Of a DNA stretch of 64,000 nt, positions 15,001 to 21,000 are shown piece after piece. Origin of the DNA: Myxococcota bacterium (GTDB lineage Bacteria; Myxococcota_A; UBA9160; UBA6930); contig OZ245015.1 in NCBI GenBank assembly GCA_965223705.1, positions 480,001 to 544,000 of the forward strand, written 5' to 3'. A program made the position numbers. The first letter of the stretch is position 1, and every line of letters begins with the position of its first letter.

Positions 15001-18000
15001 TCCCCCGGATCGATTCTCAAGTCGATCCCGCGGAGGATCGCCTTGCCGTCGGCGGAAGCGTGTAGATTCCGGATTTCGAGCACTAGCCCACGCTCCCTTC
15101 GAGGCTCACGCCGAGGAGTTGTTGCGCCTCGACGGCGAACTCCATCGGGAGCTCCTTGAGGACTTCTTTACAGAACCCGTTCACGATCATGGAAACCGCG
15201 TCTTCCTCCGACAGGCCACGCTGCCGGCAGAAGAACAATTGGTCCTCGCCGATCTTGGATGTCGTCGCTTCGTGCTCCACGGTGGCGCTTGAGTTCTTCA
15301 CCTCCACGTAGGGAAACGTGTGAGCGCCGCACCGATCGCCGATGAGGAGCGAATCGCATTGCGAATAATTTCTGGCATTCGAAGCTTTCGGCCCGATCCG
15401 GACCAGCCCGCGGTAGGCCTGGGAGCCATGGCCCGCGGAGATCCCTTTGCTGATGATCGTGCTGCGCGTGTTCTTGCCGATGTGCAGCATCTTGGTGCCG
15501 GTATCGGCTTGCTGGCGATTCGTCGTCATCGCGACGGAGTAGAACTCCCCGATCGATTCGTCGCCCTGAAGAATGCAGCTCGGGTACTTCCAGGTGATGG
15601 CGGAGCCCGTCTCGACCTGGGTCCAAGAAATCTTCGAGCGGCGTCCCGCACACTTGCCGCGCTTCGTCACGAAGTTGTAGATGCCGCCTTTGCCGTCTTT
15701 GTCACCCGGGTACCAGTTCTGAACGGTCGAGTACTTGATCTCCGCTTCCTCGAGCGCGACGAGTTCGACGACGGCTGCGTGCAACTGATTCTCATCGCGC
15801 ATCGGCGCGGTGCAGCCCTCCAGGTAACTGACGTAGGCGTTGTCTTCGGCGACGATCAGCGTGCGTTCGAACTGCCCGGTCTCCTGGGCGTTGATCCGAA
15901 AGTACGTCGAGAGCTCCATCGGGCAGCGCACGCCCTTCGGAATGAACGCGAACGACCCGTCGCTGAAGACGGCGGAGTTGAGTGCCGCGAAAAAGTTGTC
16001 GGAGTAGGGAACGACGGAGCCCAGATACTTCTTGACGAGCTCTGGGTGATTCTTGACCGCCTCGGAAAACGAACAGAAGATGACACCGTGTTTCTCGAGT
16101 TCGGCCTTGTAGGTCGTCGCCACGGAGACGCTGTCGAAAACGGCATCGACGGCCACCCCGGCGAGCCGCTTCTGTTCTTCGAGCGGGATTCCGAGCTTGT
16201 TGTACGTATCGAGAAGCTCGGGATCGACTTCGTCGAGGCTCGACAGCTGCTTCTTCGGTTTCGGAGCGGCGTAATAGTACATGTCCTGGTAGTCGATCTT
16301 CGGGTAGTCGACTTGCGCCCAGGTCGGCTCACTCTCTTCTTCGAGCATCGAAACAAACCGCCGGTAAGCGCGAAGGCGCCAATCGAGGAGCCACTCGGGC
16401 TCCTCCTTCTTCTCTGAGATGAGCCGGACGGTGGCTTCCGACAAGCCCTTCGGTGCGTATTCCGTCTCGATATCGGTAGCGAAGCCGTACTCGTAGTCGC
16501 GGTTCGCCAGTTTTTCGAGCGTTGTCGATTCGGACATCGGGTTGGAGATTCCTTCGGAAAGTTCTCTAGTTCGCCGGCCGGTCGGCGACCAAGCGGAGTG
16601 CTGCAATAGATCGCTCTCCCGGGGTCACCAGGTCGGCCAGCGTGATCTCAGCGAGTGCGTCGCGCACCGCCTCGTTGATTCGCAGCCAGGGATCGCGAAT
16701 GCGACAGGTCGACTCCTGGTCGCAATGGCCCGGGCCGGCAGTGCACGCCATGAGGGCGATCGGTCCTTCGAGCGCCTCGATGATGTCGTTGACACGGATC
16801 TCTTCCGGCGGACGCGAGAGGGCGTAGCCGCCTTTCGCTCCCCGTTGAGATACGAGGAGCTCCTCTTGCGCCAGGTTCTTCAAGATCTTGCTCACCGCCG
16901 GGTAGGGCAGCAGCGTCGCCTCGGACATCTCACGCGCGTTGCGAGTCGCAGCGTCGGGGCCGGCGCTACCCGCCGCCTCGGCCGCTTCGGCAAAATGTGC
17001 CAGAAGGACCAGGCCGTAGTCCGTGAGCTTGCTGATGCGAAGCATCGGCTGAGAATATCGGACTGAATTGGTGCTGTAAATATCGGACCGTTCCAGTCCG
17101 GTTTACTCGCCGCCGTCGAGCTTTTCGAGATCCGTCCAGTTTCCGATCGGGTGTAAAAAGGCCCAGTTCCCGTGGGACCAATCCAAGGGGGGAGCCTGCA
17201 TCCGGCCCACGCGACAGATCCTGGAGGGAGCCAACCGTGCCAGGGTGTCCGCCGCTCGGGTCGCGTCGGCTCCGAACCCCGCGAGTCCCAGGGCCGCGAG
17301 CGAGCCGCGCATTGGACCGAGGCCTTGTAGCAACGCCGCGAGGTCGTCGAAGGGGTGGAGTCGCAAGAAGCGGTGGAGCGGGTGAGGGCGCGCTTCGTGT
17401 CGGCTCTCGCGCACCACGGCCCAGCGGTTCTCGGAGTCCGCCGCGACCCGAACCCCGGGCTCTGTCGCCGCTCGAAACGCCGCTTCCGTGACCGAATCGC
17501 CAAACGCGACCCGCACTTCCACCGGGCACGCGCCCCGCGGAAGCTCTTCTTCGACCGCGGCGAACGCGTCGGCCAGAGCGTCCATCAACGGATCGATGGC
17601 GGAGCGGTGCGCGTAGACGCCCCGCGGCGAGAGGCAACCCAGTTGATCCCACAACGCGACGTCGAAGGCGATGGCGTGCGCCGTACGTTCGATTTCTGCT
17701 TCACCACCCGCGCTACCGACTACGGCGAAGGATTCGCGATGTCCGTGACCGACGAAGCGCCGGTCGGCGCGGACGCGCGCGCCGAGGGCGCGGATCGTCT
17801 CGTCGTTCCCGTAGGCGACGACGCAGTCCGCGTCGAGAAAAGGGAGCCACGACGGGTCGTCTGGCCCCGGAAGATCGCGAACCGAGACACAAGCAGCGTG
17901 GGCGGGGCTCGTCGCTTCGAGCGCTTCGCGAAACGCCGCCGCGGAAACGGGATCGTGGCGGGCGGGCTTTGCGCGAACGTCGGCGCGCGTTACCAAGGGC

Positions 18001-21000
18001 AACAACAGCGCCGACCACGTTGGCATCGGCAGAGCGCCGGCGAGAACCAAGGCGATGTCCCGGAACCCGGTGAAGCGTCGCGGTCCGTTCGCGAAGTGCG
18101 GTTCGACGCTACGGAGAAAAGCCGCGCTGGAGAAGTGTTCCCAGGCGTGGGCGAGGCCGGCTCGAATGACGGCCGGGTGAAACCCCGTCGCGGGGGGAAG
18201 CCTTTCCTCGAGAAGTTTCCGAGGGAGGCCGTCCGCGTGTGACCACGTGGCGACGAACTCGGCCAACCGTCCGAGGTGTTCTTCGTCCGAAAGACCGTCG
18301 AGGGCGCTCACGGCAGCGCGTCGATCAATTGCGCGTCCGCGGCGACGGAGCACCCGCGCACATCGCTACCCGAGCCGCGGCCCAGAACCTCGAAGCCCGT
18401 AGGAAGCTCCCGCCCGAGGTCGGCGGTCTGCAGCGCGAGCACGCTCCCGGTGTTCGCGAGGTCGAAGATGCGGATCATGCCGACCTCGCCGGGTGCGCAA
18501 TCGGTTCCGTTCTCGGGGCGTGTCACGCGCACCCGTACCCACGGCGGCCGCTCTTTGTGGCGCGGGACTCCCGGCCGCGCGAGCACGCTGTCGTAGAACT
18601 GGCTGCCGAGTTCAGTCATTCCGTACTGATTCACGATGCGATGTTCCGGAACGCCCAATCGGTCCGTAAGGGCTCCGTAGAGCTCGTTCCGAGGGACTTC
18701 TCGCGAGCGCCCCTTGAAGCCGCCGGTTTCCATGACCCGCGCCGCGGCACCCAGGGAAACGCGGGCGCCAGCGGCCTCGAGCGCGTCGAGCAGGTGCACG
18801 AAGGCGAACGCCGTTCCCGCGACGAGGACCGGCGCATCGCAGGCCTCGGCCGCTTCTAGCGCGTCGCGGAGGGGCGCGAGCGCCAACGCACCTTCGCGCA
18901 GGAAGAACGCACTCTCGCGGTCACCGCGTTCGCGGCGCATGACGTCGAACATGTACGAGAGCGATGAGTCCGACGCTTCGTCGAGAGACGGGGCGAGAAG
19001 AAGCATCCGGACCGGTCCATCGACATCGGGCAGCACGCCGCGTGTAAAGCTCGCGCGGAGAGACGCTTCGTAGAGCTCCGTCGTGTCGAGGTAGAGCGCG
19101 CCGCGCGTACTCCCTGTCGTTCCGCTGGTCCGGAACACTCGGACCGTCCTTTTCTCTTCGAAGCTGCAGAGGCGGGCGGATTTGAACGCACCGGTCGGGA
19201 CGCAGGGAATTTCGGTCCAGGACGAGAGAGCGTCGGGACGCACGCCGAGGCTTTCACAAAACGCCCGGTACGGATCGCAGCGCTCGAACTGGTAGCGGAA
19301 CACACGGAGGGCCAGCTCGTCGAAGCGCGCCTCGGAATCGTCCCAGGGCTCCCCCATCCAGGAGAGCACATCGCGGTCGATCGCCTCTCGGGTCACCCGA
19401 TGACCTCGCAGAGCGTCTCGAGCGCTGCGTGGAATACCTCTCGCTCGATGTTCAGAGCCGGCGTGATCGACAGCACGGAGCCCAGGGGGCCGGAGGGCAA
19501 GGTGATTACGCCGCGCTCGAGCGCGGCGCGGCACGTCGCGATTGAGCTTTCCGGTCGCGCGAATTCGATGCCGATCATCAAGCCGAGCCCGCGAACGCAA
19601 CGGACGCTCGCACGAGCGTCGAGCGCGTCCGTCAAGAACGCGCGGGCTTCGTCGCCGACGCGCGCGGCGCGCTCGGGAAGTTTCTCTTCCTCGATCACGG
19701 CCATGTTGGCCAGCGCGGCCGCGCAGCTCGGCGGATGTCCGAGGAAGGTCTGGGTATGCAACGCCTCGCCCGTCGACACCGGCCAAGCGTCCATCACGTG
19801 CTCGAGACCGAGACACGCGGAAATCGGCATCCCGCCGCTCAGCCCTTTGCCGACGCACATCAAGTCGGGGACTACGTCTTCGTGCTCGCAAGCGAACCAG
19901 GTCCCGGTCCGACCGAAGCCCGTGTACACCTCGTCCGCGATGAGGAGGTAGCCCTGATCATCGCAAAGCGATCGCAACTCGCGGAGGAAGCCCCGCGGAG
20001 GGACGACCTCGCCGCCGCGACCGAGGACGGGCTCGACGAGAACGGCGCCCACCGGGGTCGGGCAGGTTTCCGCTGCGCGAAGGACGTCCGCTGCGTCGCC
20101 GTAGCGCGCAAAGCGCGTCGTTTCGGGAAGCCGCCCGACGAACGGCGCTCGGAAGCGCTCGCCGTGGGTGACCGCCAACGTGCCGAGGGAGACGCCGTGG
20201 TAGGAGCCTTCGAAAGCGACGACACCGTCGCGGCCTGTGGCGAGCGACGCGGTCTTGAGTGCGGTTTCAACGGCATCGGCGCCGCTCGACACCAGGGTGA
20301 CCCGGGCCTTGGCGCCGCCGGGGTAGCGACCCGAGAGCGCTTCGAGCAGCTCGACCTTGACCGCCGACGGGTAGACGTCGCCCATCCCGTGCAGCAACGC
20401 GCCGGCTTGTTCGCGGACAGCGGCGACCACGCGGGGGTGGCTGTGCCCGGTGTTCGCGACGCCGAACGCGGCGGATAGGTCGACGAACCGGTTGCCGTCG
20501 ACGTCCCAGACGTTGGCACCGGACGCGCGCTCCCAGAAAATGGGAAGCGGATCGATGCAAGTGACGTCGGAGGTCTCGGCTTGCGCGAGGCGCGAGGCGA
20601 GGGCGCGGGAACGCGGCCCCGGGATTTCGCTGCGAGCTTCCGGCGGGTATGTCTGCGGGGCCGCCATTGCGCCAGTGTAGCGAGTAGACTTCCGCCGATG
20701 GCCGGAAGCGCCAACTGCTATGTCGCGCTCGGTGCGAACCTCGGAGATCGACTCGAGCACCTGGAGCTCGCGTTGCGCTGCTTCTCGGGCGATCCCCGCC
20801 TCGACGTCGTGGCGGTGTCGCACGTGTATGAGACCGCCCCGGTGGGCGGACCCGCGGACCAACCCGCTTACTTGAACGCGGCGGCGGCTCTGCGCGCCGA
20901 CGTCTCTCCCGAGGATCTACTTGCGAAGCTCCTCCGCATCGAATCGCGCGCCGGTCGCCGTCGCGACGGTGTCCGCGACGCGCCCCGGGAGCTCGATCTC

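Follow-up and report, generated by a model that had tools for sequence, protein, structure and literature searches.

A LuxE-LuxC-aminotransferase operon of Myxococcota as a probable replacement of QueC and QueF in queuosine synthesis

We propose that a three-gene operon of a Myxococcota bacterium, encoding a class III aminotransferase (AT), a LuxE-like and a LuxC-like protein, serves as a non-orthologous replacement of QueC and QueF when queuosine, a modified base of tRNA, is made de novo. Judging from sequence comparison and gene distribution, we put the probability of this reading at roughly 0.8. In the accessible passages of recent reviews, the route to preQ1 consists of QueD, QueE, QueC and QueF (PMC11130926, PMC13602947, PMC13740343), and genome-based schemes, as far as the accessible passages describe them, sort queuosine makers from salvagers by those genes (PMC11130926, PMC6593275). 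In the literature searched, no paper tying the families of the trio to queuosine was found. Probably, most of the phylum makes preQ1 de novo by a second route that avoids the nitrile, and the same route is used in many other phyla.

Operon structure and gene neighbourhood

The window, i.e. the whole stretch of 64,000 nucleotides that was analysed, contains the following genes at and around the operon:

16566..17045, minus strand: Rrf2-type SUF regulator heading suf genes, 57 bp past luxC on the same strand
17103..18311, minus strand: LuxC-like acyl-thioester reductase, 402 aa, Pfam LuxC 7e-36
18308..19396, minus strand: LuxE-like adenylating acyl-protein synthetase, 362 aa, Pfam LuxE 4e-14
19393..20667, minus strand: class III aminotransferase (AT), GabT-fold, 424 aa, Pfam Aminotran_3 9e-99
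20698..21225, plus strand: folK (HPPK), divergently oriented, 30 bp away from the start of AT
22608-23636: F420-dependent Rv3520c-type LLM, luciferase-like, near the operon

As the initial annotation had claimed, the trio forms one overlapping operon: positions 17103-20667 are filled by three minus-strand genes in the order AT-luxE-luxC. All three Pfam matches exceed the cut-off, and both joints are GTGA stop/start overlaps, in which the GTG start codon of luxE lies over the AT stop and that of luxC over the luxE stop. The reported lack of luxAB was also borne out near the operon, where the luciferase-like gene encodes the Rv3520c-type LLM; no luxA, luxB or luxD was found in the 9-30 kb part of the window. 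The window yielded neither a carrier protein or editing thioesterase gene nor an Rfam match, and no phage copies of the trio genes were found in viral_contigs or the phage collection.

By clustering of the neighbours of 61 loci, no fourth gene conserved phylum-wide beside the trio was detected, and the shared neighbours, whose clusters were annotated in part, included no conspicuous ACP, thioesterase or luxD family. Only in the class is folK often found near the trio, and it probably lies outside the pathway. The Rrf2-type regulator is linked to the trio at 13 of 21 class loci, our own window counted, and not in other classes.

Protein families and catalytic residues

LuxE-like and LuxC-like proteins are each encoded by a single-copy gene in the genome. 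K228, R340 and C349 of the LuxE-like protein align with K238, R355 and C364 of LuxE, and C226 of the LuxC-like protein with the LuxC nucleophile C296; all are invariant in 39 sequences, in agreement with the earlier statement that the catalytic-region cysteines are kept. Also confirmed was that both proteins score far under the NCBIfam cut-offs of bioluminescence LuxE and LuxC, reaching about a tenth of them (54 versus 550 bits for NF052244 and 58 versus 750 bits for NF052251). The Photobacterium LuxC-LuxE fatty acid reductase (PDB 7XC6; PMC9157457) has both protein families and the catalytic residues in common with the operon, which differs in the lack of luxAB and luxD nearby, in a shorter LuxC without exit residues and in the AT partner.

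The nearest folds to a structure model of the LuxE-like protein are aryl-acid ligases such as PaaK, and a polar SSL motif stands at the position of NVWF in LuxE. An ESM Atlas search returned LuxE-named clusters only. Fusions of LuxE-like and LuxC-like proteins are frequent. In sequence alignments the long hydrophobic cleft of LuxC (W111, F436, I472, L478, F483) appears not to be kept in the LuxC-like family, which stops short of the C-terminal stretch lining the long-chain exit and has other cleft residues changed. In the profile alignment, the match reaches no further than about LuxC residue 457 (numbering of the structure paper) and an invariant proline takes the position of F436.

The genome encodes seven AT paralogues of 25-40% identity. 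The AT orthologues form a clade of their own (about 41-67% identity), separate from the GabT/ArgD paralogues, and AT scores below every NCBIfam cut-off shown, including those of the GabT/ArgD equivalogs. K274 is the predicted PLP lysine, and D97, R217, T305 and T307 are family-invariant. A structure model and fold search bear out the GabT fold (TM about 0.9) and give no indication of the substrate. The GabT/PuuE 4-aminobutyrate aminotransferases are alike in fold, at 34-36% identity to AT, but three of their functional residues, the arginine of HGR, the glutamate of QGEGG and a C-terminal arginine, are replaced in AT.

Distribution of the trio and exclusion of queC and queF

The description of the trio as a core locus of the class held up: a luxE query found matches in 147 of the 151 class genomes, weak ones in two cases, and AT lies beside luxE at all 30 best loci. 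The earlier counts of 30 of 31 class genomes, 132 of 192 order genomes and 846 genomes in all, and the gene name g00444, could not be reproduced in that form. At 28 of these luxC adjoins, the two misses being short contigs. Of 20 longer class loci, all contain the three genes; six of these loci also belong to the set of 30. Beyond the class, luxE is found in 116 of 151 phylum genomes, counting strong matches, and 115 of the 116 carry the AT orthologue. Among the trio genomes two AT clades occur; in G291 and G274 no AT of either clade could be confirmed, and G342 has a divergent candidate only.

In the phylum sample (n = 151), QueC is present in 33 genomes and never together with a strong luxE match; two genomes have neither, and there QueE is missing too. 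Both groups retain QueE (114 of the 116 luxE genomes, 31 of the 33 queC genomes), and no genome of this sample has QueE without the luxE or the QueC route. Strong QueF matches are found in 29 genomes, all of them QueC-positive. Inside the class, G008 shows the swap: it is without luxE and carries adjacent queF-queC. Five class genomes (80-93% complete) with no or weak luxE match contain QueE and lack QueC, for which assembly gaps are the likely reason. Most of the sampled genomes are MAGs, and Fisher values for the exclusion overstate it because the sampled genomes are kin.

A Verrucomicrobia-centred sample (n = 131) gave a similar picture, with canonical QueC in 104 of 126 luxE-negative versus 0 of 5 luxE-positive genomes, and QueE in 5 of 5 luxE genomes versus 1 of 17 tested genomes without luxE and QueC. 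Another 30 luxE genomes, the majority of them belonging to other phyla, are all without canonical QueC, and 25 of them have QueE. A divergent QueC-like protein (E 1e-25 to 1e-32) is encoded in five luxE genomes, none of which has QueF, and the QueF-like proteins of two trio genomes are devoid of the catalytic cysteine motif. A 1.8-Mb genome retains the trio together with queD, queE, tgt and queA.

The Chloroflexota-centred sample shows no simple exclusion: QueC occurs in 3 of 8 luxE genomes versus any QueC-family match in 40 of 153 others, and the three carry both QueC and QueF. These exceptions, assigned after the fact, are accounted for only by a split of the LuxE family, since they belong to a sister clade of LuxE/LuxC that lies under TPP riboswitches at 6 of 8 loci. 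The clade has 98% support, with our LuxE outside, in a quick tree with many open forks, of which only this clade is relied on. Its LuxE proteins (in plasmid records, 35-39% identical to the query) have the motifs SSLxxY and MYG versus SSLSYM and QYG here, and in its operons an SDR or Zn-ADH and a small-molecule transporter take the place of AT. The activation and reduction logic of these luxE-luxC-SDR operons is that of the trio, but they coexist with queC/queF. Their context resembles that of oarX, which lies near acyl-CoA synthetase genes according to the accessible part of the oarX study, where C. glutamicum showed no salvage of five tested compounds (PMC11223231). The TPP-riboswitch clade thus suggests that the LuxE/LuxC family has been recruited to heteroaromatic cofactor metabolism.

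Genes for queuosine synthesis are found beside the trio in several lineages. queE lies directly ahead of the AT start in G311, 3 kb upstream of the trio on the same strand in G195, and upstream of luxC-AT at locus L330. Two loci from related genomes (L311, L160) have the order queG-AT-luxE-luxC. At only 2 of 145 luxE loci does a que gene lie no more than about 8 kb away. Scans of 33 sources yielded no preQ1 riboswitch, and no riboswitch of any kind turned up at AT-type loci.

Queuosine genes of the genome and proposed pathway

The genome (95% complete) contains folE twice, a queD-like gene (PTPS family, 4.6e-24), queE, two tgt, queA, queG and four GUN tRNAs. The five best NCBIfam matches of the QueE-family protein are QueE models; both QueE and QueD score under the equivalog cut-offs. 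queC and queF are missing, with no PF06508 match better than 1e-5, no PF14489 match, and no tblastn match to QueC or QueF of relatives. Salvage of preQ1 by YhhQ was rejected as an explanation: of 5 trio genomes checked for the transporter, one has it, and our genome does not. Since panD, argB/C, proA/B, hemA, lysA and epmA/B are present, the other acid-to-amine routes tested show no gap in this genome, and beta-alanine, ornithine, proline, ALA, lysine and EF-P lysylation were rejected as sites of action.

In the proposed route, FolE, QueD and QueE would make 7-carboxy-7-deazaguanine (CDG) as usual. The LuxE-like protein would adenylate CDG with ATP and load the acyl group onto its C-terminal Cys349, from where it would move to Cys226 of the LuxC-like protein and be reduced with NAD(P)H to 7-formyl-7-deazaguanine. 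AT would convert this aldehyde to preQ1, to be finished on the tRNA by Tgt, QueA and QueG, and the nitrile preQ0 would be bypassed. CDG as substrate, its use as the free base and each reaction are what we infer from the genes, catalytic residues and distribution observed. QueC (preQ0 synthase) and QueF (preQ0 nitrile reductase) would share with the trio the input CDG, the output preQ1, the flanking genes, and the order of ATP activation of a carboxylate followed by reduction. The two systems have no sequence or fold relation, and an amide and a nitrile on one side stand against a thioester and an aldehyde on the other, where the nitrogen would come from an amino donor via PLP. According to the accessible part of a review, QueF mutants form 7-formyl-7-deazaguanine as a by-product (PMC13740343).

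Alternative explanations

The trio might also fill the QueC/QueF gap differently, acting on CDG in tRNA, on a nucleotide or in another order, or delivering the aldehyde directly with AT being replaceable. All distribution evidence would fit equally, there are two AT clades, and a clear AT is missing from some genomes; an Arg-rich insert is present in the AT of many phylum members. Many trio genomes encode two Tgt proteins, and our Tgt beside queA has Phe and Leu at the positions of Cys158 and Val233 of Z. mobilis Tgt. However, the other one keeps both residues and is of the ordinary preQ1-inserting type, none of the three trio proteins has an extra domain, and the TPP-type sister clade accompanies small-molecule transporters. 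We consider such variants unlikely.

That the trio makes another small amine, and that the exclusion of queC/queF reflects shared ancestry, is very unlikely. The genomes are indeed related and que genes are rarely adjacent, but the exclusion recurs within a single family (G008), again in another phylum-wide sample and also across scattered phyla, its pattern follows QueE too, and the tested acid-to-amine routes of the genome are free of gaps.

The initial annotation had proposed a fatty-amine pathway. Its acid to aldehyde to amine chemistry stands as a prediction; a fatty acid as substrate very probably does not, given above all the exclusion of queC/queF across genomes, and an alkylamine product is unsupported. 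Among solved structures, only LuxE and LuxC are close relatives, and their catalytic residues match; the loss of the carboxylate-binding arginine of GabT in AT would fit an amine without a carboxylate, but preQ1 has none either. The fatty-amine pathway also leaves the exclusion unexplained, no conserved lipid or ACP neighbour was seen at the 61 partly annotated loci, the folds closest to the LuxE-like model are those of aryl-acid ligases, and neither the LuxC cleft nor NVWF appears to be retained. The TabE/TabA precedent cited for it holds by analogy only: in the accessible part of the preprint, the TabQ/J/E/A pathway of tambjamine BE-18591 likewise leads via an ALDH-fold enzyme from a thioester to an aldehyde and then to a class III transaminase, but it draws the acyl chain from ACP, TabE is a stand-alone, ATP-independent reductase, and the pathway belongs to secondary metabolism, whereas the trio is single-copy and core (bioRxiv 2025.08.11.669332). 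We regard a fatty acid as a very improbable substrate and a fatty-amine pathway as highly improbable.

Equally improbable is a trio running backwards to degrade or recycle preQ1 to CDG: AT and LuxC reactions are reversible in principle, but genomes with QueE, Tgt and QueA and without QueC/QueF need CDG to be converted to preQ1, and a degradative route would not exclude queC.

Implications

Should the trio indeed stand in for QueC and QueF, the genome-based schemes would miss as queuosine makers about three quarters of the phylum genomes in the sample, as well as members of several other phyla. Many proteins annotated as "long-chain fatty acid-CoA ligase", "acyl-CoA reductase" or "aspartate aminotransferase family" would gain a function, and the trio would constitute a natural three-enzyme cascade from a heteroaryl acid to an amine. 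The orphan LuxE/LuxC-like genes of non-luminous bacteria would then serve mainly in queuosine synthesis, with one offshoot linked to thiamine. The fatty acid reductase used in bioluminescence may be a specialised enzyme related to a heteroaromatic acid reductase.

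Operon structure and conservation

Three genes overlap in the window:

20667-19393, minus strand: AT, class III aminotransferase (Pfam Aminotran_3 above cut-off)
19396-18308, minus strand: luxE-like gene (Pfam LuxE above cut-off)
18311-17103, minus strand: luxC-like gene (Pfam LuxC above cut-off)

Coordinates, Pfam matches and GTGA overlaps at the AT/luxE and luxE/luxC joints bear out the overlapping operon of the initial annotation. As it also stated, the LuxE-like and LuxC-like proteins score far under the NCBIfam cut-offs, at about one tenth of them. Its claim of a core locus of the class holds as well, luxE protein matches being found in 147 of 151 class genomes (two weak). 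In the phylum sample, luxE is present in 116 of 151 genomes after filtering (118 raw; weak matches in G251, 9e-4, and G273, 2.6e-10, removed), and AT was detected by profile search at 1e-100 in 115, every one among these 116 (118 raw; matches in G008, G210 and G250 removed as paralogues, their E-values of 1e-101 to 1e-104 being comparable to those of second hits in other genomes). At 40 phylum loci picked for family spread and long contigs, AT lies inside the stretch at 30 (one truncated by the contig end) and luxC at 34, with gene boundaries in other genomes set by a simple in-house gene caller. Families with AT unlinked from luxE still encode it elsewhere, as judged by the AT profile in the phylum sample, and LuxE-LuxC fusions are common. 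The trio is a real core operon.

A divergent folK upstream and suf genes downstream are linked to the trio in the class only. The suf cluster (11136-17045, directly 3' of luxC, same strand) is complete, with rrf2 and genes that, by their motifs, are probably sufB, C, D, S, U and a DUF59-like gene. QueE and QueG are Fe-S enzymes; the suf linkage is nonetheless class-limited. Neither the thiamine-binding-protein family gene overlapping folK (21207-21512) nor the F420-dependent Rv3520c-type LLM gene (22608-23636) is luxA/B. In Herpetosiphon-like genomes (L182, L183, L239-L242), luxE has no adjoining luxC, and the next gene mostly encodes an MFS-like membrane protein; AT lies at another site and luxC was not located. 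One further genome, G542, has two more distant LuxE copies (L231, L232) with motifs nearer luminous LuxE (GGWKR, FNMVELNT).

Mutual exclusion of the trio and QueC

Starting from the question which known pathway needs the conversion of an acid to an aminomethyl group, QueC was tested first. It was found (E < 1e-20) in 33 of the 151 phylum-sample genomes: none of the 116 with luxE and 33 of the 35 others (G201 by a divergent match only). Strong QueF matches occur in 29 genomes, all QueC-positive; seven weak ones near 1e-6 resemble cross-matches, the one retrieved being FolE-like. Two trio genomes of family f31 (L196:3650-4231, L197:3651-4235) encode a QueF-like protein whose cysteine motif is replaced by GV and which has an N-terminal extension. 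QueE is present in 145 of 151 genomes (114/116 trio, 31/33 QueC) and missing from both genomes with neither trio nor QueC. G008 is without luxE and has queF adjoining queC; nearly all other sampled members of its family have luxE. Five class genomes (80-93% complete, assessed for the trio by luxE) have QueE, no QueC and no or a weak luxE match, and these count against the exclusion pattern.

The organism's own genome encodes two folE, a queD-like gene (C1:4085972), queE (C1:2017395), queA, queG, two tgt and GUN-anticodon tRNAs for Tyr, Asp, Asn and His; queC, queF and YhhQ were not found in it. panD, argB/C, proA/B, hemA, lysA and epmA/B are all present. One Tgt (C1:60950-62089, L208) retains Cys158 and Val233, the residues that, according to PMC3660597, distinguish enzymes using preQ1. 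The second, beside queA (C1:2191394-2192530, L211), has Phe and Leu there and may have another substrate; G162 likewise has two Tgt paralogues.

In a Verrucomicrobia-centred sample, luxE occurs in 5 of 131 genomes; canonical QueC (1e-56 or better) was found in 104 of 126 luxE-negative versus none of the five luxE-positive genomes, and QueE in 5/5 luxE genomes versus 1 of the 17 genomes tested out of 22 that have neither luxE nor QueC. Among 30 further luxE genomes (two labelled Myxococcota, the rest mostly other phyla; G289 unpublished), canonical QueC is found in none, QueE in 25 and divergent QueC-like matches in five, which are without QueF (tested in 6 of the 30). Divergent QueC-like proteins of trio genomes without QueF (L190:3855-4532, L191:3896-4579, L192:3-593, G288:C33:9660-10259) match PF06508 at about 1e-25 to 1e-31, and 13 Chloroflexota genomes have matches of comparable score. 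The Chloroflexota-centred sample (43 QueC matches, unpublished G459 included) has luxE in 8 of 161 genomes: five, four of them close kin, with QueE and without QueC, and three with QueC and QueF, in which QueE was not found. G434, G511 and G570, with QueC and QueF and no QueE found by profile, possibly salvage CDG (7-carboxy-7-deazaguanine).

Proposed reaction and substrate

We consider it probable (roughly 0.8), mainly from gene distribution, that the trio converts CDG to preQ1 in place of QueC and QueF. The LuxE-like protein would activate CDG with ATP to CDG-AMP and take the acyl group as a thioester on Cys349; after transfer to Cys226 of the LuxC-like protein, NAD(P)H reduction would give 7-formyl-7-deazaguanine, which AT would transaminate to preQ1. 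This relay is modelled on the LuxE-LuxC mechanism. In line with the initial annotation, the catalytic-region cysteines are kept: the LuxE-like protein has invariant K228, R340 and C349 at the positions of K238, R355 and C364 of Photobacterium LuxE, and C226 of the LuxC-like protein aligns with LuxC C296. C364 carries the acyl group, as described in PMC9157457. The LuxE-like structure model (pLDDT 93) has PaaK and other aryl-acid ligases as its nearest folds.

AT has a GabT fold by structure model and fold search. Since it lacks the HGR and C-terminal arginines of GabT, has an invariant Arg217 at the QGEGG glutamate position and keeps Asp97 invariant, its substrate is probably polar and free of a carboxylate; our guess is that Asp97 reads the guanine edge.

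That the trio fills the same QueC/QueF gap, but on tRNA or in another order, is unlikely, though the likeliest of the alternatives. An unrelated amine as product is improbable. Hardly any likelihood is left for the fatty amine of the initial annotation: the exclusion of queC points to CDG, and unlike Photobacterium LuxC, the LuxC-like family ends before the long-chain-exit residues and differs at other cleft positions. Operation in the catabolic direction is equally implausible.

In the literature searched, subscription journals and supplements lying outside its scope, no proposal linking LuxE/LuxC families or AT to queuosine, preQ1 or CDG was found; the portions seen of 2024-2026 reviews (PMC11130926, PMC13602947, PMC13740343) and of one 2019 study give only the QueC/QueF route. 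The operon very probably represents a new form of queuosine synthesis assembled from known enzyme types.

A sister clade with TPP riboswitches

The three Chloroflexota-sample luxE genomes with QueC and QueF encode LuxE as a fusion with a zinc alcohol dehydrogenase. On plasmids of Pantoea, Azospirillum, Priestia, Lactiplantibacillus and Niallia, luxE-luxC is accompanied by an SDR gene and mostly by a transporter gene.

TPP-type loci with SDR or fused Zn-ADH, mostly with an ABC or NCS2 transporter: L297:6776-10321, L298, L299, L300, L301, L233, L234, L235

A TPP riboswitch precedes luxE-luxC at six of these eight loci; of the remaining two, one is truncated on its upstream side. In a quick tree, all eight LuxE proteins fall into a single clade (SH-aLRT 98). 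The grouping was set after the exceptions were seen and rests on these three separate features. Because of the riboswitches, the SDR/Zn-ADH partners and the single clade, this sister LuxE/LuxC clade is a candidate for a role in thiamine metabolism, plausibly converting acid to alcohol, and its operons may serve to salvage thiamine fragments that have become oxidised; this conversion is discussed as possible salvage chemistry in PMC11223231. Independently of the que data, this argues that the LuxE/LuxC family handles heteroaromatic acids.

Linkage to que genes and a second AT clade

Direct que-gene linkage is rare (2/145 luxE loci): in G195, queE is found in the same orientation 3 kb upstream; at L160, queG precedes AT-luxE-x-luxC. 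Furthermore, in G311 queE directly precedes an AT start at a contig end, and another contig, which may join it, opens with the AT end, luxE and luxC.

A second AT clade (motifs MVYGEY, HGDT, QGEGG) also pairs with luxE/luxC.

Second-clade AT: L160:543-1757; L174:7072-8319; L285; L308-L387

At 80 metagenome loci of this clade, luxE was found at 8, luxC at 16, queE at 1 and queG directly upstream at 4, all four related and one a copy of L160. Many low-GC loci have a second-clade AT without luxE/luxC nearby. The clade is very large, with 7586 matches at 1e-100 among 8000 candidates, other class III enzymes perhaps included.
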